A stretch of 64,000 nucleotides of DNA from Lautropia sp. SCN 69-89 (lineage in GTDB: Bacteria > Pseudomonadota > Gammaproteobacteria > Burkholderiales > Burkholderiaceae_E), in the NCBI GenBank assembly GCA_001724855.1, contig MEED01000018.1, forward strand, positions 27,703 through 91,702, written 5' to 3'. Of this stretch, positions 44,735-61,673 are shown one piece after another. The stretch's first letter is position 1, and each line of letters begins with the position of its first letter. A model generated the notes under the pieces. The model was not told the origin of the DNA, did no database searches, and was given only the letters and a program-made list of their open reading frames with translations. The position numbers and the translations under genes are program-made.

Positions 44735-45330
44735 CCGAAGCTCTCGTCGTCTCGAACATCGTCCTGTGGGTCGCCGTGCTCGCGCTGCTCGGCACCGTCT
44801 TCGCGCTGGCGCGCCAGATCGGCGTGCTCTACGAGCGCATCGCCCCGATGGGCGCGCTGATGCTCGACAGCGGGCCGAAAGTCGGCGAATCCGCCCCGGC
44901 GTTCGACCTGGTCACGCTCGACGGCCGGCCCTTCGCCACCGGCGGCGCGCGCACGAAGAGCCTGCTGCTGTTCTTCCTCTCGCCGACCTGCCCGGTGTGC
45001 AAGAAGCTGCTGCCGATCCTGAAGCGGGTCGCCGTCGACGAGGGGCAGTGGCTCGAGATCGCGTTCGCGAGCGACGGCGACGTCGACGAACACGCGGCGT
45101 TCCGCACCCGCGCCGGCCTGCAGGCGTATCCGTACCTGCTGTCGACCGACCTCGGCATGGCCTACCGGATCGGCAAGCTGCCCTACGCAGTGCTGGTCGA
45201 CGAAGCCGGAAAGGTGAAGGCCAAGGGCCTCGTCAACTCGCGTGAACAGATCGAGAGCCTGTTCACCGCCCGCGACCTCGGCGTCGCGTCGGTGCAGGAA
45301 TTCGTCGCAATGGAGGCCCGCAGAGCATGA
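44731..45330 (+). CDS. mauD: Thioredoxin-like maturation protein MauD
   Basis: ARQIGVLYERIAPMGAL, SPTCPVCK, KGLVNSREQIESL. Confidence 0.95.
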   Translation: MTEALVVSNIVLWVAVLALLGTVFALARQIGVLYERIAPMGALMLDSGPKVGESAPAFDLVTLDGRPFATGGARTKSLLLFFLSPTCPVCKKLLPILKRVAVDEGQWLEIAFASDGDVDEHAAFRTRAGLQAYPYLLSTDLGMAYRIGKLPYAVLVDEAGKVKAKGLVNSREQIESLFTARDLGVASVQEFVAMEARRA

Positions 45331-45854
45331 AATGGCTTGACGACGCATTCGAGCGCTCGACGCGCGCGGCCGCGCAGCGCATCTCGCGACGCAGCGCACT
45401 GGCACGCGCCGGCCGCTTCCTGATGGGCGCGGCGATCGCGCTGCCGGTGCTGCCCTTCGACCGCACTTCGCACGCCGCGAGCGCCCACGGCGGCGGCAAG
45501 TCGAAGGCGCCCGACGACCAGCAGTGCGACTACTGGCGCTACTGCGCGGTCGACGGCTTCCTCTGCTCGTGCTGCGGCGGGACGGTGAACAGCTGTCCGC
45601 CCGGCACCGAGCCGTCGAAGGTGTCCTGGATCGGCACCTGCCGCAACCCGGCAGACGGCAAGGACTACCTGATCAGCTACTACGACTGCTGCGGCAAGGC
45701 CGCGTGCGGGCGCTGCCTGTGCAACACCAACCTCGGCGAGCGGCCCGCCTACCGGATCACGCTGCACAACGACATCAACTGGTGCATGGGAAGCACCAGC
45801 ACGATGTTCCATTGCACGGCCTCTCTGGTGGTCGGCATCGCTGACAAGAAGTGA
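45327..45854 (+). CDS. mauA: TTQ amine dehydrogenase small subunit (aromatic amine dehydrogenase-like)
   Basis: Tat signal SRRSAL; Cys-rich core; both TTQ tryptophans (VSWIGTC, NDINWCM) and catalytic Asp (YDCCG). Confidence 0.96.
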   Translation: MKWLDDAFERSTRAAAQRISRRSALARAGRFLMGAAIALPVLPFDRTSHAASAHGGGKSKAPDDQQCDYWRYCAVDGFLCSCCGGTVNSCPPGTEPSKVSWIGTCRNPADGKDYLISYYDCCGKAACGRCLCNTNLGERPAYRITLHNDINWCMGSTSTMFHCTASLVVGIADKK

Positions 45855-45870
45855 CACGACAGGAGACGAC

Positions 45871-47235
45871 ATGAAGGGGTGGAAGAAACTCTCGGCAGCC
45901 GTCGCGCTCGCCGTTGCCTGGGGTTCGGCGAGTGGCGCAGCGAGCGAACAGGAAGCCGCGCGGCTGGGCAAGGACCTCACTCCGGTCGGCGCCGAGAAGG
46001 CCGGCAACAAGGAGGGCACGATCCCGGCCTGGACCGGCGGCATCACGAAGGCGCCGGCGGGCTGGAAGCCGAGCGACCCGCGCGTCGACCCGTACAAGGA
46101 CGACAAGGTCCTGTTCTCGATCGACGCGTCGAACGTCGACAAGTACAAGGACAAGCTCTCCGAGGGCCAGCAGACGCTGATCCGCACCCTCAAGGGCTAC
46201 CGGATGGACGTCTACCCGACGCGCCGTTCGTGCGGGTACTCCGACGAGATCTACCAGCGCACCGCGCAGAACGCCCGCGTGGCCCGCCTGGCCGAGGGCG
46301 GCTGGCAGCTCGAGAACGCGGTCGGCCGCGGCGTCCTGTTCCCGGTCCCGAAGAACGGCGCCGAGGCGGTCTGGAACCACAAGCTGCGCTTCCAGGGCGC
46401 GGGGCGCGTCGAGCACTACTCGACGCTGTTCTCGGCGAAGAGCGGCGACTTCTCGCAGCTGGCGCAGAACCAGTGGGTCGTCTACCCGATCCACGACCCG
46501 GCGATGAAGAGCTTCGAGGACCTGAAGAAATCCGAGGCGAAGATCCTGAACGAGGTGGTCTCCCCGGCCGCCCGCGCCGGCGAGATGATCCTGGTGCACT
46601 GGTTCATGGACCGCGGCTCCGACGCCTGGCTCTACTTCCCCGGCCAGCGCCGCGTGCGCCGCGCGCCCTCGTTCGCGTACGACAACCCGGTGCCCGGCTA
46701 CGAGAACCTCGAGACGGTCGACCAGTACCCGATGTATGCCGGCGCGATGGACCGCTACGACTGGAAGCTGGTCGGCAAGAAGGAGATGTACATCCCGTAC
46801 AACAACTGGAAGCTGATCGACAAGAGCCGCAAGTTCAAGGACATCTACCTGCCCGACTACGTCAACCGCGACCTGATGCGCTACGAGTTGCACCGCGTCT
46901 GGGTCGTCGAGGCGACGCTCAAGGAAGGCATGCGTCACATCTTCCCGCGCCGCGTGATGTACATCGACGAGGACAGCTGGACGCTGATCCTTACCGACCT
47001 GTACGACGCGCAGGGAAAGATCTGGCGCGTCCAGGAAGCGAGCCTGTGGGTGGCACCCGAGATCCCGGCCTGCGTGAGCCAGGAGTTCGTCGGCTACGAC
47101 CTCAACGTCGGCCGCTACATCGCCGAGACGGCGACCCAGGAGCACCCGCCCACCGACTGGCTCGCGGGCCGCGAAGGGCGCATCAACCCGAACATGTTCA
47201 GCCCCGACGAGCTGCGTCGCCGCGGCGAGCGCTGA
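45871..47235 (+). CDS. DUF1329-family periplasmic/lipoprotein-sorting-like protein
   Basis: LTPVGAEKAGNKEGTIPAW, AWLYFPGQRRVRRAP, RYELHRVWVVEATLK. Confidence 0.92.
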   Translation: MKGWKKLSAAVALAVAWGSASGAASEQEAARLGKDLTPVGAEKAGNKEGTIPAWTGGITKAPAGWKPSDPRVDPYKDDKVLFSIDASNVDKYKDKLSEGQQTLIRTLKGYRMDVYPTRRSCGYSDEIYQRTAQNARVARLAEGGWQLENAVGRGVLFPVPKNGAEAVWNHKLRFQGAGRVEHYSTLFSAKSGDFSQLAQNQWVVYPIHDPAMKSFEDLKKSEAKILNEVVSPAARAGEMILVHWFMDRGSDAWLYFPGQRRVRRAPSFAYDNPVPGYENLETVDQYPMYAGAMDRYDWKLVGKKEMYIPYNNWKLIDKSRKFKDIYLPDYVNRDLMRYELHRVWVVEATLKEGMRHIFPRRVMYIDEDSWTLILTDLYDAQGKIWRVQEASLWVAPEIPACVSQEFVGYDLNVGRYIAETATQEHPPTDWLAGREGRINPNMFSPDELRRRGER

Positions 47236-47314: not shown

Positions 47315-49147
47315 ATGACCAGCAGCATGAGCAGCACCGGGGTGGCGCGGGCGGTTGCCGGCGCGCTCGCCCTTCTCGCGGCGGGCGCGATCGCCCCGCC
47401 CGCGCACGCGTTCAAGTTCGGCAACGACAACGTCACGGGCAGCTTCGACTCGACCGTCTCGTTCGGGTTCATCAAGCGCCTGGAAAGCCCCAGCCGCAGG
47501 ATCATCGGCAACGACAACGGCGGCAACGTGCCGACCACCAGCGAGCTGGAGTCGCGCGTGAACGCCTTCTACGGCGGCGGCGCGATCGCGAACCCCGACT
47601 TCAACTACCTGCAGTCCGACGACGGCAACCTCAACTACAAGAAGGGCGACATCGTTTCGGCGGCGCTCAAGGGCACGCACGAGCTGGTCCTGCACGGACC
47701 GCGCGGCTTGAGCGGCATGCTGCGCGCGACCTGGTTCAAGGACTGGAAGGTCGACGACACCGACCGCACGCCGCTCGATCCCGCGTCGCACGCGGTGGCG
47801 GTCGACAAGTGGACCTGGCTCGATGCGTGGGTCGCGAAGGAATTCGAAATCGCCGGTCGCCCGGCCAAGATCAAGTTCGGCAACCAGGTGATCAGCTGGG
47901 GCGAGGACATCTTCATCTACGGCGGCGTCAACGTCACCAACGCGATCAACCTGCAGAACTTCCACGTGCCCGGCACGCAGCTGAAGGAGATCTTCAAGCC
48001 GGCGCCGATGGTCTCGCTGAACGCCAACATCGCCGAGGGACTGAGCGTCGAGGGCTACTACCAGTTCCGCTGGAACGCGTTCACCTTCGACCCGGTCGGC
48101 ACCTTCTTCTCGGTGACCGACGTGATCGGCAAGGGCGGGCGCAACGCGTTCATGAACTCCACGCTGCTCGGCTTGCCGCCCGGGACCGTCGGCGACATCG
48201 GCACGATCAACCCGACGACGGGGCAGCGTTTCACGCTCGCGGAGCTGGCAGCGGGCACCGCGACGGTGCCGGTGGCCGGCGTCGAACTGCCGACGCTCGT
48301 GAATCCGCTGGCCACCCGCGAGCCGAAGGACTCGGGCCAGTTCGGCCTCGCGACGCGCTGGCTGCCCGAGGGCTCCGAAACCGAGTTCGGCGCGTACTGG
48401 ATCCGCTACCACGACAAGCTGCCCTTCGTCGGGTTCAACTTCGACCCGGCGCGCCACACGACCAACGTCGCCGGCCTGGCCTACTACGTCGACTACGGCG
48501 AGAGCCGCAACGTCTTCGGCGTGTCCGCGAACACGCGCGTCGGCACCTGGGCGGTCGGCGCCGAGCTGTCGTACCGGCCGAAGGACAGCGTCGGCGTCGA
48601 CACGACGGTGCCGGCGGGCGGAAAGTATTCGGTGTTCGACTACGTGGGCAAGACCACGCGAGGCTTCGTCGAGGAGCGCAAGTGGCAGGCCCACCTCACC
48701 GGCTTCAAGCTGATGGCGCCCGCCGACCTGGGCGGCCTGATCGGCAATCTCGGCGCCGAGGAAGGCTACTTCCTCGGCGAGGTGGCCGTCGCGCACTACC
48801 CCGGGCTCGATCGCTCGGGCCGCATCCCGTACCTGCTCACCGACTACTCGCTGCCCGACCGCACCTCGGCCGGGCTGGTGTTCTCCACCGGGCTCACCTA
48901 CGCGAACGTCGGCGACAGCGGCTGGAACATGATGCCGCAGCTCGACATGTCCTGGGACTTCCATGGCACCTCGCCGAACGCGGTGCCCTTCGTCGAAGGC
49001 CGCAAGGCGATGACGCTGTCGCTGAACTTCAACCGCTCCGACAAGTGGAAGGCCGGCATCGGCTATACCCGCTTCTGGGGCGGCGGCGGCAACAACCTGA
49101 TGAGGGACCGCGACTTCCTGTCGGTGATCACCTCGGTGTCGTTCTGA
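47315..49147 (+). CDS. DUF1302-family outer-membrane protein
   Basis: DDGNLNYKKGD, GNQVISWGE, GAELSYRP, terminal DRDFLSVITSVSF. Confidence 0.92.
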   Translation: MTSSMSSTGVARAVAGALALLAAGAIAPPAHAFKFGNDNVTGSFDSTVSFGFIKRLESPSRRIIGNDNGGNVPTTSELESRVNAFYGGGAIANPDFNYLQSDDGNLNYKKGDIVSAALKGTHELVLHGPRGLSGMLRATWFKDWKVDDTDRTPLDPASHAVAVDKWTWLDAWVAKEFEIAGRPAKIKFGNQVISWGEDIFIYGGVNVTNAINLQNFHVPGTQLKEIFKPAPMVSLNANIAEGLSVEGYYQFRWNAFTFDPVGTFFSVTDVIGKGGRNAFMNSTLLGLPPGTVGDIGTINPTTGQRFTLAELAAGTATVPVAGVELPTLVNPLATREPKDSGQFGLATRWLPEGSETEFGAYWIRYHDKLPFVGFNFDPARHTTNVAGLAYYVDYGESRNVFGVSANTRVGTWAVGAELSYRPKDSVGVDTTVPAGGKYSVFDYVGKTTRGFVEERKWQAHLTGFKLMAPADLGGLIGNLGAEEGYFLGEVAVAHYPGLDRSGRIPYLLTDYSLPDRTSAGLVFSTGLTYANVGDSGWNMMPQLDMSWDFHGTSPNAVPFVEGRKAMTLSLNFNRSDKWKAGIGYTRFWGGGGNNLMRDRDFLSVITSVSF

Positions 49148-49166: not shown

Positions 49167-51527
49167 ATGATCGCGCACTTCGTCGGCCGGCTCGAACGGC
49201 TCATCTTCGGGCACCGCGGCATCCTGCTCGCGCTGCTGGGTCTGCTCACCGTCGTCATGGCGGTGTTCGCGAGCCAGCTGCGCATGGACGCCGGCTTCGA
49301 CAAGCAGCTGCCGCAAGACCACGAGTACGTCCGCACCTTCTTCCAGTACCGCGACCAGGTCTTCGGCGCCAATCGCGTCATCGTGGTGGTGCGCGCGCGC
49401 GACGGCGAGATCTGGAGCGCGCCCGGCCTGCGCCGGCTCTACGACGTCACGCAGTCGGTGATGTTCCTGCCGGGCATCGACCGGCGCACGGTGACCTCGC
49501 TGTGGACGCCGAACACCCGGGTGCTCGGCGTGACCGAGGAAGGCTTCAAGGCCGAGGACGTGATCGGCGGCGACATCACGCCCGACCGGCTCGACCCGGG
49601 CCGCATCGAGCGGATCCGCGCCAATGCGCTGGCGGGCGGCTACATCGGCACGCTGGTGTCCACCGACAACGCCGCCGCGATGGTCGTTGCCGACCTGCTC
49701 GAGACCGATCCGGCCACCGGCAAGCGCCTCGACTACCTCGACTTCGCGCGCCGCATCGAGGACGAGGTGCGCGGCCGTCACGAGGACGCGTCGTTCGAGG
49801 TGCAGATCATCGGCTTCGCCAAGCAGATCGGCGACATCGCCGACGGCGCGCGCAGCGTCATCGAGTTCTTCACGCTGGCCTTCGTCCTCACCGCGCTGTC
49901 GGTCTGGCTGTATTGCCGCTCGGCCGCGCTCACCGCGATCACGCTGCTGTCGTCGCTCGTGTCCGTCGTCTGGCAGTTCGGCACGCTGCGGCTGCTCGGC
50001 TACGGGCTCGACCCGCTGGCGGTACTGGTTCCGTTCCTGGTGTTCGCGATCGGCGTCTCGCACGGGGTTCAGCAGATCAACTTCGTGGTCAAGGGCGTCT
50101 GCGCCGGTGCCGACAGCATGACCGCGTCGCGCCGGGCGTTCAGCGGGCTGCTGGTGCCGGGCTCGATGGCACTGGTGACCGCCTTCGTCGGCTTCGCCAC
50201 GCTGACGCTGATCCCGATCCCGATGATCCGCGAACTGGGCATCACCGCGTCGATCGGCGTGGCCTACAAGATCGTGACGAACCTCGTGATGCTGCCGGTG
50301 TGCGCATCGTTCCTGCGCTTCGACGATGCCTGGGTCACGCGCCTGAAGCACCTGCGCGCCGCACGCGAGAAGGCGATGACGGTGCTGGGCCGGGTCGCCG
50401 AGACGCGCAATGCCGCGATCGGCACGCTGATCTGCGCAGCACTGTTCGCGATCGCGTTCGTGCAGAGCCAGGGTCGCCACGTCGGGCACCTCGCCTCGGG
50501 CGCACCCGAGCTGCGCCCCGATTCGCGCTACAACCTCGACGCGGCGTCGATCGTCGGCAGCTTCGACCTCGGCCTGGACGTGCTCACCGTCGTCTTCGAG
50601 ACGCCGAAGGACGGCTGCTATCGCCTCGACGTGATGGCCCATGTCGACCAGTTCGCCTGGCACATGCAGAACGTGCCGGGCGTGATCTCGGTCGCCTCGG
50701 TGGCGCAGCTCGCGAAGCAGGCCTACTCGGGCACCAACGAGGGACATCCGAAGTGGACTGCGCTCGCTGCCGACGAGCGCTCGCTGGCGAATTCGGTCGG
50801 CCTGATTCCCGAGGGCACCGGGCTGTTCAACCCCGGCTGCACCGTCCTGCCGGTCAACGTCTACCTCACCGATCACAAGGCATCGACGGTCAAGGACGTG
50901 ATCGCCGCGGTGCGCGAGTTCCGCGACAGCGAGAAGCTCGACGGCGTGACGCTGCGGCTGGCCAGCGGCAACGTGGGGGTGCAGGCGGCGACCAACGAGG
51001 TGCTCGAGACCACCGAGCTGCCGATGATGCTCTGGGTCTACGCGACGATCGTCGCGCTGGTCTTCTTCACCTACCGAGACTGGCGCGCGATGATCGCCTG
51101 CTGCCTGCCGCTCACGTTGGCGACCTTCCTCGGCTACTGGTTCATGAAGGCGCTCGACATCGGGCTGACGGTGGCCACGCTGCCGGTGATGGTGCTCGCG
51201 GTGGGCATCGGCGTGGACTACGCCTTCTACATCTACAACCGCCTGCAGCTGCACCTGTCGGACGGCGCGAACATCGTGGACGCGTTCAAGCAGGCGCTGA
51301 TGGAAACCGGCAACGCGACCATCTTCACCGCGATCACGCTGTCGGTAGGCGTGGCCACCTGGTCGTTCTCCGACCTGAAGTTCCAGGCGGACATGGGGAT
51401 GCTGCTCACGTTCATGTTCATGGTGAACATGCTGATGGCGATCACGCTGCTGCCGGCGCTCGCCGTGATGATCGACGTGCTCGTGCCGCGGCGCCGGCCG
51501 GTGCGCGCGCCGTTCCTCGTCCATTGA
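49167..51527 (+). CDS. RND/MMPL-family membrane transporter
   Basis: Two repeats of loop plus TM bundle; AIGVSHGVQ, GIGVDYAFY, LKFQADMG. Confidence 0.92.
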   Translation: MIAHFVGRLERLIFGHRGILLALLGLLTVVMAVFASQLRMDAGFDKQLPQDHEYVRTFFQYRDQVFGANRVIVVVRARDGEIWSAPGLRRLYDVTQSVMFLPGIDRRTVTSLWTPNTRVLGVTEEGFKAEDVIGGDITPDRLDPGRIERIRANALAGGYIGTLVSTDNAAAMVVADLLETDPATGKRLDYLDFARRIEDEVRGRHEDASFEVQIIGFAKQIGDIADGARSVIEFFTLAFVLTALSVWLYCRSAALTAITLLSSLVSVVWQFGTLRLLGYGLDPLAVLVPFLVFAIGVSHGVQQINFVVKGVCAGADSMTASRRAFSGLLVPGSMALVTAFVGFATLTLIPIPMIRELGITASIGVAYKIVTNLVMLPVCASFLRFDDAWVTRLKHLRAAREKAMTVLGRVAETRNAAIGTLICAALFAIAFVQSQGRHVGHLASGAPELRPDSRYNLDAASIVGSFDLGLDVLTVVFETPKDGCYRLDVMAHVDQFAWHMQNVPGVISVASVAQLAKQAYSGTNEGHPKWTALAADERSLANSVGLIPEGTGLFNPGCTVLPVNVYLTDHKASTVKDVIAAVREFRDSEKLDGVTLRLASGNVGVQAATNEVLETTELPMMLWVYATIVALVFFTYRDWRAMIACCLPLTLATFLGYWFMKALDIGLTVATLPVMVLAVGIGVDYAFYIYNRLQLHLSDGANIVDAFKQALMETGNATIFTAITLSVGVATWSFSDLKFQADMGMLLTFMFMVNMLMAITLLPALAVMIDVLVPRRRPVRAPFLVH

Positions 51528-51549: not shown

Positions 51550-52032
51550 ATGTTCGAACGCCTGATCGCCCGCCTCTCCGGCGAACCCGCCGAGGCGCCC
51601 GGCACCGACCTCGAAGGGCGCCGCCAGCTCGCGGTGGCGGCGCTGCTGGTCGAAGCGGTGCACGTCGACCGCCACGCCGACCCCGAGGAGCGCCAGGCCG
51701 TCGTGTCGCTGCTTCGCGAACGCTTCGACCTGCCCGGCGAGCAGGCCGAGCACCTGGCCGAGCTCGCCGAGGCGCGATTCGCGACGGTGCTCGACGACTG
51801 GATCTTCGCGCGCGCCGTCAGGCAGGGCTTCGACCACGACGAGCGCGCCGGCATCCTGGGAATGCTCTGGGAAACGGTCTACAGCGACGGGCGCCTGGCC
51901 GCTTTCGAGATGGACCTGCTGCAACGGCTGACCGATGCGCTGGAGGTCGAACCGGCCGCGGCCGAGGCGGCGCGCGCGCGCGCGTTCGCGCGCATCGGGC
52001 TGAGCGAACCCGAGAACGGAGGCGACGCATGA
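51550..52032 (+). CDS. TerB-family (DjlA N-terminal-like) protein
   Basis: AVAALLVEAVHVD, LWETVYSDG, E..LLQRL..L. Confidence 0.8.
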   Translation: MFERLIARLSGEPAEAPGTDLEGRRQLAVAALLVEAVHVDRHADPEERQAVVSLLRERFDLPGEQAEHLAELAEARFATVLDDWIFARAVRQGFDHDERAGILGMLWETVYSDGRLAAFEMDLLQRLTDALEVEPAAAEAARARAFARIGLSEPENGGDA

Positions 52033-53057
52033 GCGGGCGGGCACGCACGAAGCGGCGCACGGTCGCGATCGTTGCCGCCTGTGTCCTGGCCGCGTCGCTC
52101 GGAGTGTCGGGCACGGGCGCCGGCGCGGCGGACAAGCCGCCGTCCGACGTGCCCACCGGCGCAGGGGTCGCCCCGAAGACCGACGGCGCGGCCGGCGTGC
52201 ACGCGCAGAAGGTCGCACACCCCGAACGGGCGCCGCTGATGGCGGCCACGCGCGCCGGATCGCGCATCGTCGCGGTCGGCGACTTCGGCACCGTCCTGCT
52301 GTCCGACGACCAGGGCGCGAGCTGGCGGCAGGCAGCCGACGTGCCGACGCGCGTCACGCTGACCGCAGTGCAGTTCCTCGACGCGAAGCAGGGATGGGCG
52401 GTCGGGCACGGCGGGCTGGTGCTCGCCAGTGCCGACGGCGGCGAGCACTGGCGCGTCGCGCACCGCGCCGGCACCGAGTTCTCGTTCTTCTCGGTGCACT
52501 TCTCCGACGCCGAACACGGGCTGGTGGTCGGCGCATTCGGCGCCGCGATCGCCACGGAAGACGGCGGCAAGACCTGGGACGAAATCACCGTCGGGCAAGG
52601 CGAGTTCTCCGATCGCCACCTGTACCAGATCTTCCCCGGCCCCGACGGCACGACCTGGATCGCCGCCGAGAGCGGCGTGGTCTACCGCTCGACCGACGCA
52701 CGCGTGTTCGCTCCGGTCTCGCTGCCCTATCGCGGCTCGATCTGGGGCGGCATGACGCTGCCCGGCGGCGCGATCCTGGTCTGGGGCATGGGCGGGCACG
52801 TGCTGCGCAGCACCGACTCGGGCGCGTCGTGGCGCGAGATCCCCAGCGGCACCGAGAACCCGTTGACCGCCGGGCTGCTGCTGGGCAAGCGGATCGTGCT
52901 CGCCGGACTCGGCGGCGCGGTGCTCACCAGCGACGACCTCGGCGCGAGCTTCCGCGCCGAGATCCGTCCCGACCGCCTGTCCTACACCGCGGCGGTCGAG
53001 TCCGCCGGGGCGCCGCTGCTGACCAGCCTGTCGGGCGTAGCCGCGCCGCGCAAATGA
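52029..53057 (+). CDS. YCF48-related BNR/beta-propeller protein
   Basis: Repeated SDDQGASW / TEDGGKTW / STDSGASW Asp-box motifs; signal peptide. Confidence 0.9.
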   Translation: MSGRARTKRRTVAIVAACVLAASLGVSGTGAGAADKPPSDVPTGAGVAPKTDGAAGVHAQKVAHPERAPLMAATRAGSRIVAVGDFGTVLLSDDQGASWRQAADVPTRVTLTAVQFLDAKQGWAVGHGGLVLASADGGEHWRVAHRAGTEFSFFSVHFSDAEHGLVVGAFGAAIATEDGGKTWDEITVGQGEFSDRHLYQIFPGPDGTTWIAAESGVVYRSTDARVFAPVSLPYRGSIWGGMTLPGGAILVWGMGGHVLRSTDSGASWREIPSGTENPLTAGLLLGKRIVLAGLGGAVLTSDDLGASFRAEIRPDRLSYTAAVESAGAPLLTSLSGVAAPRK

Positions 53058-53104: not shown

Positions 53105-54598
53105 ATGAACCAGTCCGTCCAGAGCCAGCAACCCGAACTCTCGGCCATCCGGCAGAAGATGTTCATCGACGGAAGGTTCGTCGATGCGCGCTCCGGCAAG
53201 ACGCTGCCGGTGTTCAACCCGGCCACCGGCGCCGAGATCGCCCGGGTGCCCGACGCCCAGGCCGAAGACGTCGACGCGGCGGTGCGCTCGGCGCGCGCCA
53301 CTTTCGAGTCGGCGGCCTGGCAGGGCATGCTGCCCGCCGAGCGCGAGCGGCTGCTGCTGAAGCTGGCCGACCTGATCGAGCAGCACGGCGAGGAGCTCGC
53401 GCGGCTCGAGACGCTGAACAACGGCAAGCTGCTGATGTTCTCGCGGATGCTCGAGGTGGGCGCCAACGCGCAGTGGACGCGCTACATGGCCGGCTGGGCC
53501 ACGAAGATCGAAGGCTCGACGCTGGACGTGTCGATTCCGTTTCCGCCCGGCGTGCGCTACACCGCGATGACCCGTCGCGAGCCGGTCGGCGTCGTCGGCG
53601 CGATCGTGCCGTGGAACTTCCCGCTGCTGATGGCGATGTGGAAGATCGCGCCGGCGCTGGCCTGCGGCTGCACCGTGGTGCTCAAGCCGGCCGAGGAAAC
53701 GCCGCTCACCGCGCTGCGGCTGGCCGAGCTGGTGATGGAGGCGGGTTTCCCGGCGGGCGCGGTCAACGTGGTCACCGGCTACGGCGAAAGCGCGGGCGCG
53801 GCGCTGGTGCGTCATCCGGGCGTCAACAAGATCGCCTTCACCGGCTCGACCGAGGTCGGCAAGATCATCGGCCGCAGCTGCATGGACGACATGAAGCGCG
53901 TGTCGCTCGAGCTGGGCGGCAAGAGCCCGGTGATCGTGCTCGACGACTGCGATCCCGCGGTCGCGGTCGCGGGCGCGGCCGGCGCGATCTTCTTCAACCA
54001 CGGCCAGGTCTGCACGGCCGGCTCCCGGCTGTTCGTGCACAAGAGCCGCTACGACCAGGTGCTCGCCGGGCTCGCGTCCGCGGCCGAGTCGACGAAGCTC
54101 GGCGACGGTTTCGACGAGTCCGCGCAGATGGGCCCGATGGTGTCGGCCACGCATCGCGACCGCGTGGTGCGCTACATCGAGTCGGGCAAGTCCGAAGGAG
54201 CCGAGCTGCTCGCCGGCGGCCAGGCGCAGCCCGGATCGGGCTACTTCGTACGGCCCACCGTGTTCTCGAACACCACGGGCAAGGACCTCACGATCTCGCG
54301 CGAGGAGATCTTCGGGCCGGTGGTCGTCGCGTCGCCGTTCGACGATCTCGACGACGTGGCACGCAAGGCGAACGACTCGCGCTACGGGCTGGGGGCGAGC
54401 ATCTGGACCAACAACCTGACGCAGGCCTACCGGCTGATCCCCAAGGTGCAGGCCGGCACCGTCTGGCTGAACTGCCACAACATGGTCGATCCGAACCTGC
54501 CGTTCGGCGGCTACAAGGACTCCGGCGTCGGGCGCGAGCACGGCCGGGCGATGATCGACGTCTACACGGAGACGAAGTCGGTGTGCGTAGCCTACTGA
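53105..54598 (+). CDS. Aldehyde dehydrogenase, phenylacetaldehyde dehydrogenase-like
   Basis: PWNFPL, FTGSTEVG, LELGGKSP, NHGQVCTAG, EEIFGPV. Confidence 0.93.
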   Translation: MNQSVQSQQPELSAIRQKMFIDGRFVDARSGKTLPVFNPATGAEIARVPDAQAEDVDAAVRSARATFESAAWQGMLPAERERLLLKLADLIEQHGEELARLETLNNGKLLMFSRMLEVGANAQWTRYMAGWATKIEGSTLDVSIPFPPGVRYTAMTRREPVGVVGAIVPWNFPLLMAMWKIAPALACGCTVVLKPAEETPLTALRLAELVMEAGFPAGAVNVVTGYGESAGAALVRHPGVNKIAFTGSTEVGKIIGRSCMDDMKRVSLELGGKSPVIVLDDCDPAVAVAGAAGAIFFNHGQVCTAGSRLFVHKSRYDQVLAGLASAAESTKLGDGFDESAQMGPMVSATHRDRVVRYIESGKSEGAELLAGGQAQPGSGYFVRPTVFSNTTGKDLTISREEIFGPVVVASPFDDLDDVARKANDSRYGLGASIWTNNLTQAYRLIPKVQAGTVWLNCHNMVDPNLPFGGYKDSGVGREHGRAMIDVYTETKSVCVAY

Positions 54599-54966
54599 GT
54601 CCGGGCAGGCTGGCGGCCGGGTTGCTCGCGGTCGGGCTGCTCTGCGGCGGCCCGGCGGCGGCCGCGCAGCCCGCAGCCGCGTCGGCGCCGCAGAACGCGG
54701 CGACGCTGTACGCGCTGAACTGCATGGGCTGCCATCCGCCCCCGCGCACGCCCGGCGCGGACCGCGGGCCGTTGCGCGGCGAGTTCTACCTGAACGCGCG
54801 CGGCCGCAACTTCTACATCCGCGTGCCGCAGGACGGCAAGCGCGTGCTCGGCCCCGACGAGGAAGCGCGGCTGCTCGACGAGATCATGACCTGGAAGCGC
54901 AGTTGCGCGGCGATCCTGCAGGACGCGCCCCAGGTGCACTACAGCGGCGAGCGCTTCGTCAAATGA
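54583..54966 (+). CDS. Small monoheme cytochrome c
   Basis: Signal peptide then YALNCMGCH; GRNFYIRVP; GTG start inside the ALDH 3' end is inferred. Confidence 0.8.
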   Translation: MRSLLSPGRLAAGLLAVGLLCGGPAAAAQPAAASAPQNAATLYALNCMGCHPPPRTPGADRGPLRGEFYLNARGRNFYIRVPQDGKRVLGPDEEARLLDEIMTWKRSCAAILQDAPQVHYSGERFVK

Positions 54967-56057
54967 ACGTGCGCTCGCTGCCTCGGGTCGTCGCCGCAAT
55001 GCTCGCCGCCGTGCTGCTCGCCGCGGCACCCGCGCGCGCGGCCGATACGGTTTCGCGGCCGCCGTCGCCGGCGGCCAGCGCGGCACTTCTCGAACTCGGC
55101 CGGCACCTGTTCTTCGAGTCGCGCCTGTCCGGCGACGGCAGCCGCAGCTGCGCGAGCTGCCACGCGCCGGCGCGCGGCTTCTCGGAGGGCGTGGCGCTGT
55201 CGCGCGGCTACAACCACAGCGGGCACTTCCGCAATGCGCCCGGCCTGCTCGGCCTGCGGCTCAAGGAGCGACTCGCCTGGGACGGGCGCTACCGCATCGA
55301 CGAGCTGCCGAAGCTGGTCGAGGAGATGCTGACCTCGCCGATCACGATGAACGGCAACCCGGGGATCATCGCCGAGCGGGTGCGCCAGGTGCCGCAGCTG
55401 CTGCAGTTGTGGCAGCGGGCCTTCGGCGAGCGCACGCCGCCCTCGTTCGACGGCGTGGCCCGTGCGATCGCCGCCTGGTCGGCCGCGCACGACGGCGGCG
55501 ACACCGCGGTCGACGCCGCGCTGCGCGGCGACGCGTCGGCGCTGTCGCCGCGGGCCGCCGAGGGGATGCGGCTGTTCACCGGCAAGGCGGGCTGCTCGGG
55601 CTGCCATTCCGGTCCGGCGTTCTCCGACGGCCTGGCGCACCGGCTCGGCGTCCCTGAATCGCCGCAGATCCTGCGCGATCCGGAGCGCACGGTCGCGCTG
55701 CTGGCCCATCACGCGAGTCATGGCTCGGCCGACCCGATGAGCGAGCGCAGCGACACCGGCGTGCACGCGTTGACCCGCAGGGCTTCGGACCGGGGACGCT
55801 TCTTCACGCCGGGCCTGCGCGGCGTGGCGCAGACCGCCCCGTACATGCACAACGGTACCCTCCCCGATCTCGCGGCGGTCGTCGCGTTCTACGACCGCGG
55901 CGGCGGCCGCGGCTCCGAGACGAAGCCGCTCGGCCTGTCCGCGAGCGAACGCGAAGCGCTGGTGGCGTTCCTCGAGGCGCTCACGCCGCGCACCGCGCTC
56001 GCCGTGGCGCCGCCGCCCGCCTTCGACTACGCCACGCAGGCGGGAGCCGGGCGATGA
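54963..56057 (+). CDS. Di-heme cytochrome c peroxidase/MauG-family protein, copy 1
   Basis: CASCH and CSGCH, RNAP, WDGR, TAPYMHNG..VAFY. Confidence 0.9.
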   Translation: MNVRSLPRVVAAMLAAVLLAAAPARAADTVSRPPSPAASAALLELGRHLFFESRLSGDGSRSCASCHAPARGFSEGVALSRGYNHSGHFRNAPGLLGLRLKERLAWDGRYRIDELPKLVEEMLTSPITMNGNPGIIAERVRQVPQLLQLWQRAFGERTPPSFDGVARAIAAWSAAHDGGDTAVDAALRGDASALSPRAAEGMRLFTGKAGCSGCHSGPAFSDGLAHRLGVPESPQILRDPERTVALLAHHASHGSADPMSERSDTGVHALTRRASDRGRFFTPGLRGVAQTAPYMHNGTLPDLAAVVAFYDRGGGRGSETKPLGLSASEREALVAFLEALTPRTALAVAPPPAFDYATQAGAGR

Positions 56058-57250
56058 AGATCCGGGTCGTCACGGGCGTGCTGCTCGCGCTCGCTGCGAG
56101 CGCTGCGGTCGCCGTGGCCGCGCTGTCGGCCGCGCGCGCACCGGCGCCCGCCTCGGCCGACTCGGTGCCCGCGCTGGCGCTGCTGCCGCCGGTGCCGGTG
56201 CCGGCCGACAACCCGATGAGCGCGGCCAAGGTCGAGCTCGGGCGGCTGCTGTTCTTCGATGCGCGCCTGTCGGGCGACACCTCGACCTCGTGCGCGACGT
56301 GCCACGTCGCGCAGATGGGCTGGACTCACGGCGATGCGCTCGCGCCCGGCTATCCGGGCCACCGTCTGTGGCGCAACAACCCCACGGTGCTCAACGCCGC
56401 GCATTTCCGCCGGCTGATGTGGGACGGCAGCCTCGACCGGCTCGAGGTGCAGGCGCGCTCGGCCATGCAGGCGCCGGTCGAGGGCAACGGCAACGCCGCC
56501 ATCGTCGAGATGCGGCTGCGGCTGGTGCCCGAATACGTCGACCGCTTCCGCGAGGCGTTCGGCGCCGAGTGGCCCAGGCTCGACGATGCGTGGCGGGCGA
56601 TCGCAGCCTTCGAGCGCACCGTCGTCTCCGATCCGCGCAAGGTGCCGTTCGACCGCTTCCTGGCTGGCGACGCGAAGGCGCTGACCGCCGCGGCGCAGCG
56701 CGGCTACGCGCTGTTCACCGGCAAGGCGGGCTGCATCGCCTGCCACCATGGCCCGCTGGCGAGCGACGAGAGCTATCACGCGCTCGGCGTCCCGCGCCAG
56801 TCGCTGTACGACTCCAGCGCGCTGGTGCAGGTCGCGGTGCGCTGGCAGAACGCCCAGCGCGATGCGCCGCGCGCGCTGTACCGCGGCGCCGAGGAAGACC
56901 TCGGCCGCTACTACCGCACCCGCGATCCAGCCGACATCGGCAAGTTCCGCACGCCGTCGCTGCGCGAGCTGCGCTACACCGCGCCCTACATGCACAACGG
57001 CGTGTTCGGCACGCTGCAGGAAGTGGTCGACTTCTTCGACCGCGGTGGCGGCGACGCGCCCAACAAGTCGCCGCTGCTGCGCCCGCTCGGGCTCACCAGC
57101 GACGAGAAGCGCGACCTGGTCGCGTTCCTCGAATCGATGAGCATGGACGAGCCGCTGATCGTCGCCGCGCCCGAGCTGCCGCCGATGCAGCCGCTCGTCG
57201 AGGAAACGGCGGGCAGCTGCAGCGCGAACGATGGAGGAGGGGCGGGATGA
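56054..57250 (+). CDS. Di-heme cytochrome c peroxidase/MauG-family protein, copy 2
   Basis: PADNP..KVELGRLLFFDARLS, CATCH and CIACH, WDG..EVQA..PVE, TAPYMHNG..VDFF. Confidence 0.92.
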   Translation: MKIRVVTGVLLALAASAAVAVAALSAARAPAPASADSVPALALLPPVPVPADNPMSAAKVELGRLLFFDARLSGDTSTSCATCHVAQMGWTHGDALAPGYPGHRLWRNNPTVLNAAHFRRLMWDGSLDRLEVQARSAMQAPVEGNGNAAIVEMRLRLVPEYVDRFREAFGAEWPRLDDAWRAIAAFERTVVSDPRKVPFDRFLAGDAKALTAAAQRGYALFTGKAGCIACHHGPLASDESYHALGVPRQSLYDSSALVQVAVRWQNAQRDAPRALYRGAEEDLGRYYRTRDPADIGKFRTPSLRELRYTAPYMHNGVFGTLQEVVDFFDRGGGDAPNKSPLLRPLGLTSDEKRDLVAFLESMSMDEPLIVAAPELPPMQPLVEETAGSCSANDGGGAG

Positions 57251-59592
57251 CGAACGCCGGCAGGCTCTGGAACCGCTTCGTGATGAACCCCCGGGGCTGG
57301 TGGCTGCCGCTGCTCGCGGTGCTCGCGATCGGCGTGGGCAGCATGCTGTACATGGGCACGCGCACCTACCTCGATGCGCCACCGGTGCCCGACTTCGTCG
57401 ACGAGCGCGGCGTCGCGGTGGTACCGGCCGCAGCAATCACGCGCGGGCAGGCGGTGTTCCTGAAGTACGGGCTGATGAACTACGGCAGCATGTTCGGCGA
57501 CGGCGCCGGACGCGGCCCCGACTTCACCGCCGACGCGCTGCACCAGATGGCGCGCGCGATGCGCGACCATCATGCGTCCGCCGACGGCGTCGACGTCGAT
57601 TCCGCGCTCGCCGCCGCGCAGCGCGAGATCAAGCGCAATCGCCACGATGCGCTCACCGACACGGTCACCGTCGGCGCGGCGCAGGCCTATGCCGCGCGCG
57701 AGATCGAGCGTCGCGTGGCCGCGATGTTCCGCGGCGAGGGCAGCGAAGCCTTCCACCCTGCCGGCTTCATCGCCGACGAAGCCGAACTGCGCGACCTCGC
57801 GGCCTTCTTCTTCTGGGGAGCGTGGGTCTGCGGCGTCGAGCGGCCCGGCAAGGCCTACAGCTACACGCACAACTGGCCGTACGACGAGCTGGCCGGCAAC
57901 CGGCCGAGCGCGCAGGTCATGCTGTGGAGCGTGATCGCGGTGCTCGCGCTGGTGGCCGCGCTCGGCGCGGTGCTGTTCCTGTACGGCCGCTACGCGTCGA
58001 TCGCCGGATGGCGTCCCGCGCAGCGCGGCGACGCGTTCCCGCAGGCGGGAGCGATGGCCAGCGCCGCGGCGGTCGATGCGCTGCGCCCCGGCGCGCTGCA
58101 GCGCGCGACCTACAAGTTCTTCGCTGCCGCCGCGGTGCTGTTCGTGCTGCAGGTCGCCGCCGGCATCCTGACGGTGCACGACTTCCTCGGCATCACCCGG
58201 GTGTTCGGCGTCGATCTCGCGCAGGCGCTGCCGATCCCGGTGGTCCGCGGCTGGCACCTGCAGCTCGCGCTGCTGTGGATCACCGCCTGCTGGGTCGGCG
58301 CGTCGATCTTCGTCGTGTCGACGGCGGCGCCTCGGGCACCGGCCGGACAACTGAGGCTGGTCCAGCGGCTGTTCGGCCTGTTCGTCTTCACCGCGGTCGG
58401 CGGGCTGGCCGGTGTCGCGCTCGGGCCGCACGGGCTGCTCGGCGACTGGTGGCACCTGCTCGGCAGCCAGGGTTGGGAGTTCGTCGAACAGGGCAGGCTC
58501 TGGCAGGCGCTGCTGTTCGCGGTGTTCGCGCTGTGGTGCCTGGTGCTCGCACGTGCGGTGCGGCCGATCTGGCATTCGGGCGATGCGTGGATGCTGCCGA
58601 AGTGGCTGCTCTACTGCGTCGCCTGCGTGCTGGTGCTGTTCGTCTCCGGGTTCGTCGCAACCCCGCAGACCAACTTCGTGGTCGCCGATTTCTGGCGCTG
58701 GGCGGTGATCCACATGTGGGTCGAGGCGTTCTTCGAAGTCTTCACCACCGCGGTGCTCGCGTACTTCATGGTGCTGATGGGACTGGTGAGCCACCCCGCG
58801 GCCTCGCGCATCGTCTATCTCGCAGCCCTGCTGTTCCTCGGTTCGGGCCTGCTCGGCATCTCGCACAACTTCTACTGGAACGCCAAGCCGGTCGAGACGC
58901 TGGCGATCGGCAGCGTGTTTTCGACGCTGCAGGTCGTGCCGCTGATCCTGCTCACGCTCGAAGCCTGGCAATTCCGCAACGCGCCGCAGCGCGCGAACGC
59001 CGCTGGCGGCTTCGGCCAGTCGGAGGCGTTCCTGTTCCTGCTCGGCGTGAATGTCTGGAACTTCCTGGGCGCCGGCATGTTCGGCTTCATGATCAACCTG
59101 CCGATCGTCAACTACTACGAGCACGGGACCTACCTGACGGTGAACCACGGCCACGCCGCGCTGATGGGCGTCTACGGCAACCTCGCGATCGCGACGATCG
59201 TCTTCTGCGCGCGCTGCCTCATCGAGCCCGCCCGCTGGAACGCCGCGCTGCTGCGCCGCGTGTTCTGGTCGCTCAACGTCGGCCTGCTGCTGATGATCGT
59301 CGCCGACCTGTTTCCGGTGGGCATCGCGCAACTGCTCGACGTGCTCGAAAACGGCTTCTGGCACGCACGCTCGCAGGCGTTCATCGGCAGCGACCTGTTC
59401 CAGGCGCTCACCTGGGCCCGCATCGTCGGCGGTGCGCTGTTCGTGCTCGGCGGCGTGCTGCCGCTGGCCTGGTTCGTCGTGACTCGTGCGGCCGCACTGA
59501 AGGCGCCGCGTCCCGAGCCAGCCGAGGACGCGGCGACCCGCACTGCGCCGGGCGCGGACGCGCTGCCGTTGGCCGAGGGCCCGCGCGCCTGA
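57247..59592 (+). CDS. qNOR-related heme-copper-oxidase superfamily protein with Nod-type (putative NO dismutase) active-site substitutions
   Basis: qNOR architecture (GPDFTAD, WHLQL, HMWVEAFFE, TVNHGH); SHNFYW instead of HH, TLQVVP instead of E, YTHNWP, RIVGG instead of R..GD. Confidence 0.85.
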   Translation: MTNAGRLWNRFVMNPRGWWLPLLAVLAIGVGSMLYMGTRTYLDAPPVPDFVDERGVAVVPAAAITRGQAVFLKYGLMNYGSMFGDGAGRGPDFTADALHQMARAMRDHHASADGVDVDSALAAAQREIKRNRHDALTDTVTVGAAQAYAAREIERRVAAMFRGEGSEAFHPAGFIADEAELRDLAAFFFWGAWVCGVERPGKAYSYTHNWPYDELAGNRPSAQVMLWSVIAVLALVAALGAVLFLYGRYASIAGWRPAQRGDAFPQAGAMASAAAVDALRPGALQRATYKFFAAAAVLFVLQVAAGILTVHDFLGITRVFGVDLAQALPIPVVRGWHLQLALLWITACWVGASIFVVSTAAPRAPAGQLRLVQRLFGLFVFTAVGGLAGVALGPHGLLGDWWHLLGSQGWEFVEQGRLWQALLFAVFALWCLVLARAVRPIWHSGDAWMLPKWLLYCVACVLVLFVSGFVATPQTNFVVADFWRWAVIHMWVEAFFEVFTTAVLAYFMVLMGLVSHPAASRIVYLAALLFLGSGLLGISHNFYWNAKPVETLAIGSVFSTLQVVPLILLTLEAWQFRNAPQRANAAGGFGQSEAFLFLLGVNVWNFLGAGMFGFMINLPIVNYYEHGTYLTVNHGHAALMGVYGNLAIATIVFCARCLIEPARWNAALLRRVFWSLNVGLLLMIVADLFPVGIAQLLDVLENGFWHARSQAFIGSDLFQALTWARIVGGALFVLGGVLPLAWFVVTRAAALKAPRPEPAEDAATRTAPGADALPLAEGPRA

Positions 59593-59604
59593 AGCCTGCG
59601 TTGC

Positions 59605-60963
59605 TCAGGCGCCGCAGCTGACGAGCGCCGCCTCCAGCGCGTCGACGATCAGGTCGATTTCCGGCCGCTGGATCACCAGCGGCGGCGACAGGATCAGGTT
59701 GCCGCCGGAGACGCGGACCATCGCGCCGTTGCGGAAGGTCTGCGCGGCCACCGCCGCGGGCAGTGCCGCCTTGCGGTCGAGCGGCGTGCGCTTCTCCTTG
59801 TCGGCCACCAGCTCGACGCAGGCCATCAGCCCGATGCCGCGCACGTTGCCCACGGCGCGGAACTTCTGCTCGAACGGCTTCAGCCGCGACATCAGGTATT
59901 CGCCCTGCACGCGCGCGTTCTCCGGCACGTTCTCGCGCTCGACGATGTCGAGCGCCGCCAGCGCCGACGCGCAGGCCACCGGATGACCGCTGTAGGTGTA
60001 GCCGTGCATGAGGGCGCCGCTGCCCGTCTGGTCGCTGAGGAACGCGTCGGCGATGCGCGCCGACACCGCGGTCGCGCCCAGCGGCACGTAGCCCGAGTTG
60101 ATGCCCTTGGCCAGGCACATGATGTCGGGCTGCACGCCCCAGAGCCGCGAGCCGAACATCGAGCCGGTGCGGCCGAAGCCGGTCACCACTTCGTCGGCGA
60201 TCAGCAGCACGCCGTGCGCGTCGCAGACCTTGCGCACCAGCGGCCAGAAGTTCGGAGGCGGCACGATCACGCCGCCGGCACCCTGCACCGGCTCGGCGAT
60301 GAACGCCGCGACCGTGTCGGGACCCTGGAAGCGGATCTCGCGATCGAGCAGCTCGGCGCAGATCTCGCCGAGCCGCTGCGGGTCGTCGGTGTAGGGGTTG
60401 CGGTAGTCCCACGGCGTGTCGACGTGGAAGCACCCCGGGAGCAACGGCTCGTAGGCGCGCCGGAACGCGGTGTTGCCGTTCACCGACATGCCGCCGAAGT
60501 GCACGCCGTGGTAGCCCTGCTTGAGCGCGATGAACTTGTGGCGGTCGGCCTGGCCCATCAACTTCCAGTACTGGCGCGCGATCTTCAGCGCGCCCTCCAC
60601 CGCGTCGGAGCCGCCGCTGGAGAACGCGACGCGCGCCATGCCCTCGGGCTGCAGCATCCCGATCAGCCGCACCGACAGCTCGATCGCGCGCGGATGCGTG
60701 GTGCCGCGAAAGCACGAATAGAACGCGAGCTCGTCGAGCTGCTCGACGATCGCCCGCTTGATCTCCTCGCGCCCGTAGCCGAGGTTGATGTTCCACAGGC
60801 CCCCCACGCCGTCGACCACGCGATGGCCGTCGACGTCGGTGACCCAGACGCCGTCGCCGCGGGCCACGATGATCGGGGGCTGTTCCTGCATCTGGCGCGG
60901 GTGCGCCATCGGGTGCAGCATGAAGCGCGCGTTGTGCGCGCGCAGCTCGTCCGGGCCGGTCAT
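59605..60963 (-). CDS. Class III PLP-dependent aminotransferase-family protein
   Basis: DGVGGLWN, YHG, AEPVQGAGG, DEVVTGFGRTG, LAKGINSGY. Confidence 0.93.
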   Translation of the reverse strand: MTGPDELRAHNARFMLHPMAHPRQMQEQPPIIVARGDGVWVTDVDGHRVVDGVGGLWNINLGYGREEIKRAIVEQLDELAFYSCFRGTTHPRAIELSVRLIGMLQPEGMARVAFSSGGSDAVEGALKIARQYWKLMGQADRHKFIALKQGYHGVHFGGMSVNGNTAFRRAYEPLLPGCFHVDTPWDYRNPYTDDPQRLGEICAELLDREIRFQGPDTVAAFIAEPVQGAGGVIVPPPNFWPLVRKVCDAHGVLLIADEVVTGFGRTGSMFGSRLWGVQPDIMCLAKGINSGYVPLGATAVSARIADAFLSDQTGSGALMHGYTYSGHPVACASALAALDIVERENVPENARVQGEYLMSRLKPFEQKFRAVGNVRGIGLMACVELVADKEKRTPLDRKAALPAAVAAQTFRNGAMVRVSGGNLILSPPLVIQRPEIDLIVDALEAALVSCGA

Positions 60964-61673
60964 GAGAGTTCTCCGGGAGCGGGGCCGTCGATGCCGAGCC
61001 GGGCGCGCACGCGTGCGAAGCTGCCTTCGGGATCGGCGAGGTCGAAGAAGATGGCGTCCATGCCCACCGCGCGCGCGCCCTCGACGTTGCGCGGCTGGTC
61101 GTCGACGAACACCGCACGCGCCGCGGGCACGCCGAGCGCCTCGAGCGCGGCACGGTAGGCGCGCGGATCGGGCTTGAGCACGCCGGTGTACGTGGCGTCG
61201 ACCAGCACGTCGATCTCGCGCAACAGCTCGAGCCGGTCCATGAACGGCCGGCCCCAGAAGAGCTCGAGCTCGTTCGAGACGATGCCCACCCGCAGGCCCG
61301 CGGCGCGCGCCGCCGCGATCGTGCGCCGCGCGCATTCGCGCACCGCCCGGTTCGGGTCGTCGCCGCGGATCGCCTTGAAGAAGTCGAGCGGCGTCCATGC
61401 ATCGTGGCCGAGCATGCGGCCGACTTCGGCCGCGCGCTGCGCCCAGTAGTCGCGCTCGCTGATCGCGCCGGCGGTCATGCTGCGCCAGAGCGGATCGGTG
61501 TCGGGGTCGACCGGCCCGAGCCAGCCGAGCGTGCCGGGCGCCAGGCCGAGGATCGTCTCGATCTCGCGCTGCCGCTCGAAGGCCGAGATCGTGATCACGC
61601 TGCCGAAGTCGAGCAGCAGCGCGTCGAACAGGCGCTCTCCGACCCGATGGGCGCGCGCTTCGGGGGCGTTCAT
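60960..61673 (-). CDS. HAD-superfamily hydrolase (IA type)
   Basis: Motif I DFGSV, motif II SN, LKPDP, motif IV FVDD. Confidence 0.88.
   Translation of the reverse strand: MNAPEARAHRVGERLFDALLLDFGSVITISAFERQREIETILGLAPGTLGWLGPVDPDTDPLWRSMTAGAISERDYWAQRAAEVGRMLGHDAWTPLDFFKAIRGDDPNRAVRECARRTIAAARAAGLRVGIVSNELELFWGRPFMDRLELLREIDVLVDATYTGVLKPDPRAYRAALEALGVPAARAVFVDDQPRNVEGARAVGMDAIFFDLADPEGSFARVRARLGIDGPAPGELS

Follow-up and report, generated by a model that had tools for sequence, protein, structure and literature searches.

Twin di-heme peroxidases of the IdrP1/IdrP2 type close an aromatic amine dehydrogenase operon in Lautropia sp. SCN 69-89

A 64,000-nucleotide stretch of DNA from Lautropia sp. 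SCN 69-89 (contig MEED01000018.1, positions 27,703 to 91,702 of the forward strand; hereafter the window) encodes two adjacent di-heme peroxidases, copy 1 and copy 2, and raises the question of what such a pair does beside the genes for an amine dehydrogenase with a tryptophan tryptophylquinone (TTQ) cofactor. A preliminary description of this DNA had noted that the catalytic residues of the two copies complement one another, and had proposed that together they form a heterodimeric substitute for the TTQ-maturing enzyme MauG. We found that the twin genes close an operon of the aromatic amine dehydrogenase (AADH) type (aauBEDA-like), and that by sequence and gene order they are an IdrP1/IdrP2-type pair, a family which is itself already known. 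Our preferred reading, to which we assign a probability of roughly 45%, is that the two proteins would form a periplasmic four-heme unit of this type at the oxidising end of an AADH-fed chain, serving the adjacent terminal enzyme. A MauG-replacing role for the pair is possible but draws no support from the comparative evidence.

In Paracoccus MauG, Gln103 and Glu113 stand at the peroxidatic heme, and Tyr294 ligates the second heme and enables the bis-Fe(IV) state; ordinary bacterial cytochrome c peroxidases (bCcPs) have Met at the latter position. Translation of the window bore out the motifs that had been described for both copies, namely two CxxCH motifs (CASCH at 55149 and CSGCH at 55593 in copy 1; CATCH at 56291 and CIACH at 56732 in copy 2), the inter-heme Trp within WDG (W106 and W123), and the Ca-site motifs RN.P (RNAP and RNNP) and TAPY (T291-Y294 and residues 309-312). 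In copy 1, codon 55890-55892 (TAC) encodes Tyr310 at the axial-ligand position, 17 residues past Pro293, and the columns of the pocket Gln and Glu are occupied by Leu118 and Thr128, the latter followed by Met129 (DELPKL..SPITM), so that there is no distal Gln/Glu. In copy 2, the same +17 position after the TAPY Pro is Phe328 (TTC, 57035-57037), and the pocket holds Gln133 (56450-56452) and Glu143 (56480-56482), 10 residues apart as in MacA and the bCcPs, with Ala at Gln+4, where Pro would be expected. In HMMER alignments to solved structures, the +17 column coincided with the Met ligand in MacA (PYFHSG...KIM) and, in MbnH, with a Tyr (PYMHDG...DIY). The copies are 41% identical over 334 aa, and each begins with an N-terminal hydrophobic stretch resembling a signal peptide. 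Conservation among homologues agreed with these assignments: the commonest sequence variants among approximately 115 copy-1 homologues have Tyr or His in the ligand column and lack the pocket Gln/Glu, while among the copy-2 homologues (n = 131) the ligand column holds Phe in 91 cases and Tyr in the other 40, and most retain Gln. The Gln/Pro/Glu trio that binds peroxide is conserved in bCCP, MauG and BthA (PMC6405878).

That neither copy is a complete MauG or bCcP, as had been suggested, held true at the level of residues, profile scores and phylogeny. Neither chain unites a five-coordinate heme with Gln/Pro/Glu and a His-Tyr six-coordinate heme, as in one-chain MauG, and neither has the +17 Met of the canonical bCcP electron-transfer heme (His/Met), since Tyr310 and Phe328 stand there. 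Both copies scored under the cut-off of the MauG equivalog TIGR03791 (159.7 bits for copy 1 and 223.1 bits for copy 2; cut-off 443.85 bits) and of the MbnH model TIGR04039 (169.5 and 213.8 bits; cut-off 362.85 bits), and gave weak, marginal matches to the hydrazine synthase gamma model.

To place the pair, we drew on a tblastn census of 91 genome/assembly loci and 80 metagenome loci, and on a single-protein scan of metagenome contigs, which recovered close relatives. In a FastTree phylogeny of 133 sequences, whose long reference branches make the deep nodes provisional, copy 1 fell within a clade of upstream genes (clade a; 49 members, support 100) and copy 2 within a clade of downstream genes (clade b; 46 members, support 96). 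The two clades are sisters (joint support 99) and contain all paired cytochrome c peroxidases (CCPs) of Idr-type clusters, and each copy sits in a seven-member subclade with other amine-operon-linked pairs. A canonical MauG from the same order (G266; 478.5 bits, encoded next to mauA), MbnH, MacA and the third CCP of the source genome all fell outside, separating the pair from every one of these references. Of the loci that extend far enough, which come from many phyla, most have a Rieske gene and then an AioA/IdrA-like molybdopterin (Mo) gene after the pair, and in Idr-type loci of the census the order is always CCPa-CCPb-Rieske-Mo; the idr cluster itself has been described previously (PMC8692401). 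The likeness to IdrP1/IdrP2 that the preliminary description had pointed out was thus upheld, as was its remark that IdrAB is lacking here: no Rieske or Mo gene directly follows the pair in the window, where a homologue of quinol-dependent nitric oxide (NO) reductase (qNOR) resembling the putative NO dismutases (Nod-like) stands instead.

The window shares with the idrABP1P2 clusters of Pseudomonas sp. SCT, Denitromonas sp. IR-12 and Azoarcus sp. DN11 the adjacent paralogous di-heme CCP genes, their Sec-type signals, their order relative to the next gene, and an upstream paralogue without Gln/Glu followed by a downstream one with Gln; moreover, in isosyntenic operons IdrBA-like genes come immediately behind the pair. 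Unlike those clusters, it has the Nod-like haem-copper enzyme, a gene for a small cytochrome c before the pair and an AADH operon around it, and its copy 2 has Phe for Tyr at the ligand position and Glu for Ala in the pocket. By adjacency to idrB, judged from the accession order in PMC10149662, copy 2 would correspond to the published IdrP1. With MauG, both copies have in common the family PF03150, two c-hemes, the inter-heme Trp, the Ca-site motifs and an operon with a TTQ enzyme, and the Tyr of copy 1 and the Gln/Glu of copy 2 lie at the spacings of Tyr294 and Gln103/Glu113; in contrast to MauG, these features are spread over two chains, the equivalent of Pro107 is Ala in copy 2, and the Tyr is not kept in sister operons. 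MbnH (6e1c) aligns with copy 2 over its full length, has a similar PYMH(N/D)G...F/IY..GG region and matches the Tyr of copy 1 at the aligned +17 position, but it belongs to a different clade. The canonical bCcPs (MacA, CcpA and Pseudomonas aeruginosa CcP) are similar at the level of the fold (E 1e-34 to 1e-45) and share the Gln...Glu pocket and inter-heme Trp with copy 2, yet they are products of single genes rather than a hetero-pair and have Met where the copies have Tyr or Phe. BthA and BthB of Burkholderia are also paralogous Tyr-ligated di-heme enzymes, approximately 40% identical to each other and with their physiological role unassigned, but the similarity of our pair to 6nx0 is weak (E ~1e-8), BthA has Ser for the inter-heme Trp, and the bthA and bthB genes are not adjacent.

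The division of residues between the two copies turned out to be widespread in this family. In ordinary Idr clusters, the upstream paralogue (P1) has no Gln/Glu (Val/Leu, hydrophobic, Met) and has Tyr at the ligand position, and the downstream paralogue (P2) keeps Gln, has Ala for Glu and likewise has Tyr at the ligand position. An upstream paralogue without Gln/Glu was found in essentially all Idr-type pairs of the census, in many phyla and with no TTQ enzyme nearby, and the split is therefore an old property of the paralogue pair and not the sign of a divided MauG. Pairs of the amine-operon type, with the small cytochrome c upstream, have Tyr or His at the P1 ligand position and mostly Phe at that of P2, with Tyr in the fused types of L189 and G197:C6. 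His in P1 is combined with Phe in P2 in numerous sister operons that share these AADH-type genes (among them L001, L007, L013, L014 and L108-L115), and there is therefore no Tyr-ligated heme there. A Tyr-to-His exchange abolishes the bis-Fe(IV) near-infrared signature in BthA, and as reported also in MauG Y294H, and the BthA mutant is still active as a peroxidase (PMC6405878). The P2 column of the pocket Glu is Glu in 12/12 Nod-linked loci and Ala (Ser in a few) in the readable Idr-linked loci; this switch, which tracks the terminal enzyme, fits with a coupling of the pair to that enzyme.

Copy 1 and copy 2 probably act as one physical pair, a view supported indirectly by natural P1-P2 fusions and by published co-purification, and this is the part of the proposed heterodimer that stood, whereas its reading as a MauG divided over two chains did not. 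Single open reading frame (ORF) fusions with four hemes (736-802 aa), an Ala/Pro-rich linker and no second signal peptide were found in four lineages (Table 1), and in one of these (L124/L125/L189) the neighbouring TerB gene of the operon is on record in >20 contigs. In L124 and L137, ORFs first taken for genes following the pair had no Pfam match, and re-calling of the genes showed the pair to be fused there. The P2 domain of the L189 fusion has His where the pocket Gln stands. On native gels, IdrA, IdrP1 and IdrP2 were found together in active bands (PMC10149662), and removal of H2O2 has been proposed for the IdrP1/IdrP2 pair (PMC10149662, PMC8692401).

With regard to the operon as a whole, the TTQ small subunit gave 192 bits and approximately 70% identity to the Alcaligenes faecalis AADH beta subunit, as against 128 bits to methylamine dehydrogenase (MADH), and the TTQ dehydrogenase genes scored under the MADH equivalog cut-offs. 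Together with the StyD-like dehydrogenase, this AADH-type enzyme suggests catabolism of an arylalkylamine (phenylethylamine or tyramine) rather than use of methylamine. From the small cytochrome c gene through the twin copies to the Nod-like gene, successive genes are coupled by ATGA stop/start overlaps. Between aauA and the aldehyde dehydrogenase lies a DUF1329-DUF1302-RND/MMPL-TerB-BNR/Ycf48-like block, which occurs in identical order in L012, L098, L104, L106 and L189. One of these loci, L098 (G149:C34:169500-189400), reproduces the window operon gene for gene with Rieske and Mo (IdrBA-like) genes in the slot of the Nod-like gene, and is a clean swap of the terminal enzyme; the pair is likewise followed by Rieske and Mo genes in L013, L014 and L007. 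Genomes of the same genus have neither the Nod-like gene nor mauA and encode only an ordinary qNOR, so that the operon is accessory.

Alignment of the Nod-like protein to the Geobacillus stearothermophilus qNOR (3AYF) showed that the haem ligands are conserved, as are the His and Glu of helix VI. The protein has HN for HH at the FeB site (GISHNFYW) and Gln for the nearby catalytic Glu (STLQVVPL), and the Glu and Asp of the quinol site are both replaced by Gly. The HN and Glu-to-Gln exchanges and the loss of the quinol site match the published definition of the putative NO dismutases (PMC3413370). HN was present in 120/120 of the closest homologues, and Gln, in the motif searched, in 116/120. 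Among 401 genomes of the order, a Nod-like protein was found only in the source genome, the others encoding ordinary qNORs at ≤40% identity. The small cytochrome c had no Pfam or NCBIfam match, and its homologues lie directly upstream of the pair only in amine-operon-linked clusters, with weak matches in two fusion loci whose context could not be read. A weak homologue (35-38% identity) also follows mauA in AADH-type clusters without the pair (L183 9512-9694, L186 10669-10851), which raises the possibility that the small cytochrome c belongs chiefly to the dehydrogenase.

The loci show directly to which family the two genes belong, that they are paired and sometimes fused, and what their synteny and residue patterns are; the direction of electron flow, the oxidant and the identity of the catalytic subunit are inferred. 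The AADH-type enzyme would oxidise an arylalkylamine through its TTQ and pass electrons to the small cytochrome c whose gene immediately precedes the pair, and the cytochrome would hand them to the P1/P2 unit; this unit would then reduce a peroxide-level oxidant tied to the neighbouring terminal enzyme, which in the window is the Nod-like haem-copper enzyme and in the isosyntenic relatives an IdrBA-like molybdoenzyme. Copy 2 would be the catalytic partner, with a peroxide-reactive N-terminal heme pocket (Gln133, Glu143 and the inter-heme Trp), and copy 1, with a hydrophobic pocket devoid of acid-base residues, would be a non-peroxidatic partner for electron transfer or scaffolding, its C-terminal heme predicted to be His/Tyr-ligated (His/His in orthologues).

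Several points weigh against this four-heme, terminal-enzyme-serving unit. TTQ dehydrogenases make no peroxide, and the source of the oxidant is therefore something that we infer. We know of no characterised precedent for Phe at the axial-ligand position of copy 2, and in a comparison of columns among the copy-2 homologues, which sought a replacement axial ligand particular to the Phe type, no Met, His, Lys or Cys column set the Phe subgroup apart from the Tyr subgroup. The fusion of L189 is the last gene of a 19-gene amine operon with neither Idr nor Nod-like genes, and the pair is thus not strictly tied to a terminal enzyme. Conversely, Asinibacterium sp. OR53 and a gammaproteobacterial metagenome-assembled genome (L187, L188) have Nod-like genes 54-64% identical to that of the window but no pair beside them, which indicates that the association of pair and Nod-like enzyme is specific to this operon family. 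Finally, the Nod-linked loci form one clade, so that the Glu/Ala difference between terminal enzymes amounts to a single evolutionary event. In a bolder version, which we think unlikely, the cytochrome c, P1 and P2 would be a portable four-heme adaptor that joins a periplasmic TTQ amine dehydrogenase to interchangeable, oxidant-handling IdrBA-like or Nod-like terminal enzymes; the Nod-linked form would supply electrons to an enzyme believed to have no way of receiving them, or consume its O2- or peroxide-level product, possibly building TTQ without external oxygen.

The MauG substitute of the preliminary description would have the pair, alone or as a heterodimer, mature the TTQ of the co-encoded AADH-type enzyme, perhaps with an oxidant from the Nod-like or IdrBA-like neighbour when oxygen is absent, and we regard this as quite unlikely. 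In its favour, at least five different gene orders join the pair to mauBEDA-type genes (Table 1), the amine operon retains the pair with a Nod-like gene, IdrBA-like genes or no terminal enzyme gene at its end, and the Tyr of copy 1 has the MauG spacing. The genomes G000-G004 and G149 have one mauA apiece, near the pair; in none of them did anything score above the MauG cut-off, and no further full-length PF03150 gene was found in G149 (98% complete) or G004. A canonical mauG elsewhere in the genome, which had been named as a possible objection to the proposal, was not found in the source genome (G000), where the third of three PF03150 genes reached 98 bits against the MauG model in surroundings unrelated to mau and was rejected as a candidate. 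However, the clade to which the copies belong otherwise accompanies IdrBA, with no TTQ enzyme, in dozens of loci from many phyla, and both copies lie far under the MauG equivalog cut-off. Since each chain carries two hemes, residues split over two chains rebuild no single MauG heme pair, and the many sister AADH operons with His in P1 and Phe in P2 carry the very exchange that removes the bis-Fe(IV) signature (PMC6405878). Among the 33 mauA-bearing genomes in our order-level sample of 401, a canonical mauG was present in 1/33 and the pair lay near mauA in only 2/33 (G000, G149). Two genomes (G180 and G290, 98-99% complete) have a full mauBEDA set, with mauA 52-57% identical to that of the window, and no PF03150 gene at all. 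These two genomes and the rarity of mauG indicate that AADH-type systems have no general need of a MauG-family enzyme, and therefore the absence of mauG alone calls for no substitute.

It is also conceivable, although we consider it doubtful, that the four-heme pair acts as an electron wire which replaces NorC or quinol as the donor of the Nod-like qNOR homologue, making the latter a cytochrome-dependent NO (or O2) reductase and not a dismutase. This would suit a protein that lacks the quinol-site Glu and Asp, whose start overlaps the stop of copy 2, and whose gene occupies the exact slot of IdrBA in G149, IdrBA being a periplasmic reductase that reportedly receives its electrons from cytochrome c (PMC8692401); in addition, cytochrome c, P1 and P2 lie upstream in all 12 Nod-linked loci where the region is visible. 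The pair-free Nod-like genes argue against such a wire, as does the peroxidase-type open pocket kept by copy 2, which a pure wire would not need. Very unlikely, in our judgement, is some other chemistry, in which the pair would modify another protein, as MbnH does, or would process NO-derived species at an open heme like the CCP-like gamma subunit of hydrazine synthase. Copy 2 does align end to end with MbnH 6e1c (E 2e-45), and a second heme of this copy may be open, given the Phe at the ligand position, but Pfam scans of the neighbouring genes found no MbnP-like partner, the scores of both copies fall short of the MbnH cut-off, and the hydrazine synthase matches of both are marginal.

The coordinates of the features are collected in Table 1. 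Because the G+C content of the 64,000-nt window is approximately 70%, automatically generated ORF lists contain a great many spurious frames, and the gene map was therefore derived from analysis of codon-position GC (GC3) together with translation. Two long ORFs without a Pfam match were rejected by this approach as wrong-frame artefacts: one at 53473-54966 (497 aa) over the aldehyde dehydrogenase and small cytochrome c genes, and one at 57231-59621 (796 aa) over the Nod-like gene. The slot of the divergent AraC-family regulator is likewise filled in L007. Downstream of the operon, on the minus strand at 59605-61673, we observed genes for a class-III aminotransferase and a HAD hydrolase, which recur with UPF0261 and an amino-acid permease within the L189-type operon and beside L004, and may share the amine pathway. 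The third CCP of the source genome (P0247; L101 1458-2678, G000:C30) is a protein of 406 aa with a lipoprotein-like N-terminus, Gln, Glu-Met, the inter-heme Trp and Tyr at the ligand spacing, and its gene has histidine kinase, FMN_bind and ApbE genes as neighbours.

Table 1. Genes of the operon in the window, natural fusions of the pair, gene orders that link the pair to amine dehydrogenase genes, and mauBEDA clusters of genomes without PF03150.
Feature	Locus	Coordinates	Strand	Evidence or remark
AraC-family regulator, divergent	window	41749-42753	-	Pfam HTH_18 / HTH_AraC
mauB-like, AADH type	window	43032-44183	+	Pfam
mauE-like	window	44180-44734	+	Pfam
mauD-like	window	44731-45330	+	Pfam
mauA-like (TTQ small subunit)	window	45327-45854	+	Pfam
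DUF1329 gene	window	45871-47235	+	Pfam
DUF1302 gene	window	47315-49147	+	Pfam
RND/MMPL gene	window	49167-51527	+	Pfam
TerB gene	window	51550-52032	+	Pfam
BNR/Ycf48-like gene	window	52104-53057	+	Pfam
StyD-like phenylacetaldehyde dehydrogenase, 497 aa	window	53105-54598	+	NCBIfam NF045735, 901 bits (cut-off 850)
Small secreted mono-heme c-type cytochrome, 127 aa, GTG start, CMGCH	window	54583-54966	+	translation
Copy 1, upstream paralogue ('a' type), 364 aa	window	54963-56057	+	Pfam PF03150, 111.6 bits
Copy 2, downstream paralogue ('b' type), 398 aa	window	56054-57250	+	Pfam PF03150, 146.5 bits
Nod-like qNOR homologue, 781 aa	window	57247-59592	+	PF22085 + PF00115
P1-P2 fusion, 768-802 aa	L124/L125/L189	L124 8612-11020; L189 17848-20154
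P1-P2 fusion, 736 aa	L137/L140	L137 781-2991
P1-P2 fusion	P0197
P1-P2 fusion, probable	L190 (G197:C6)			both CCP matches within one 774-aa open frame
Layout: window type	also L012, L104, L106, G001
Layout: divergent	L110
Layout: cytochrome c-P1-P2-Rieske-Mo upstream of AraC-mauBEDA	L007, L013
Layout: mauBEDA, then directly cytochrome c-P1-P2-Rieske-Mo	L014/G004
Layout: long operon closing with a fusion, no terminal enzyme	L189
mauBEDA cluster, no PF03150 in genome	L183 (G180:C17)
mauBEDA cluster, no PF03150 in genome	L184 (G290:C12)

As far as the searched literature shows, the AADH operon context of the pair, its dedicated small cytochrome c, the Nod-like enzyme in place of IdrBA, the Phe-type downstream paralogue and the natural fusions are new. 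The function of IdrP1/IdrP2 in iodate respiration is unsettled, and the wider contexts of the pair bear on it: the pair persists where IdrBA has been lost, has become a single protein in several lineages and has been recruited alongside a Nod-like enzyme, which points to a general redox/peroxidase module rather than an iodate-specific one. For the Nod-like enzyme, the operon provides a defined partner set, comprising the small cytochrome c and the four-heme unit, with which electron-donor experiments become possible, and if an adaptor of this kind does feed that enzyme, the 'NO dismutase' clade would be recast as a cytochrome-dependent reductase. Given that mauG was found in just one of the mauA-bearing genomes of the order and that two of them have no CCP-family gene, the operon could also help to explain how TTQ is formed in AADH-type enzymes.

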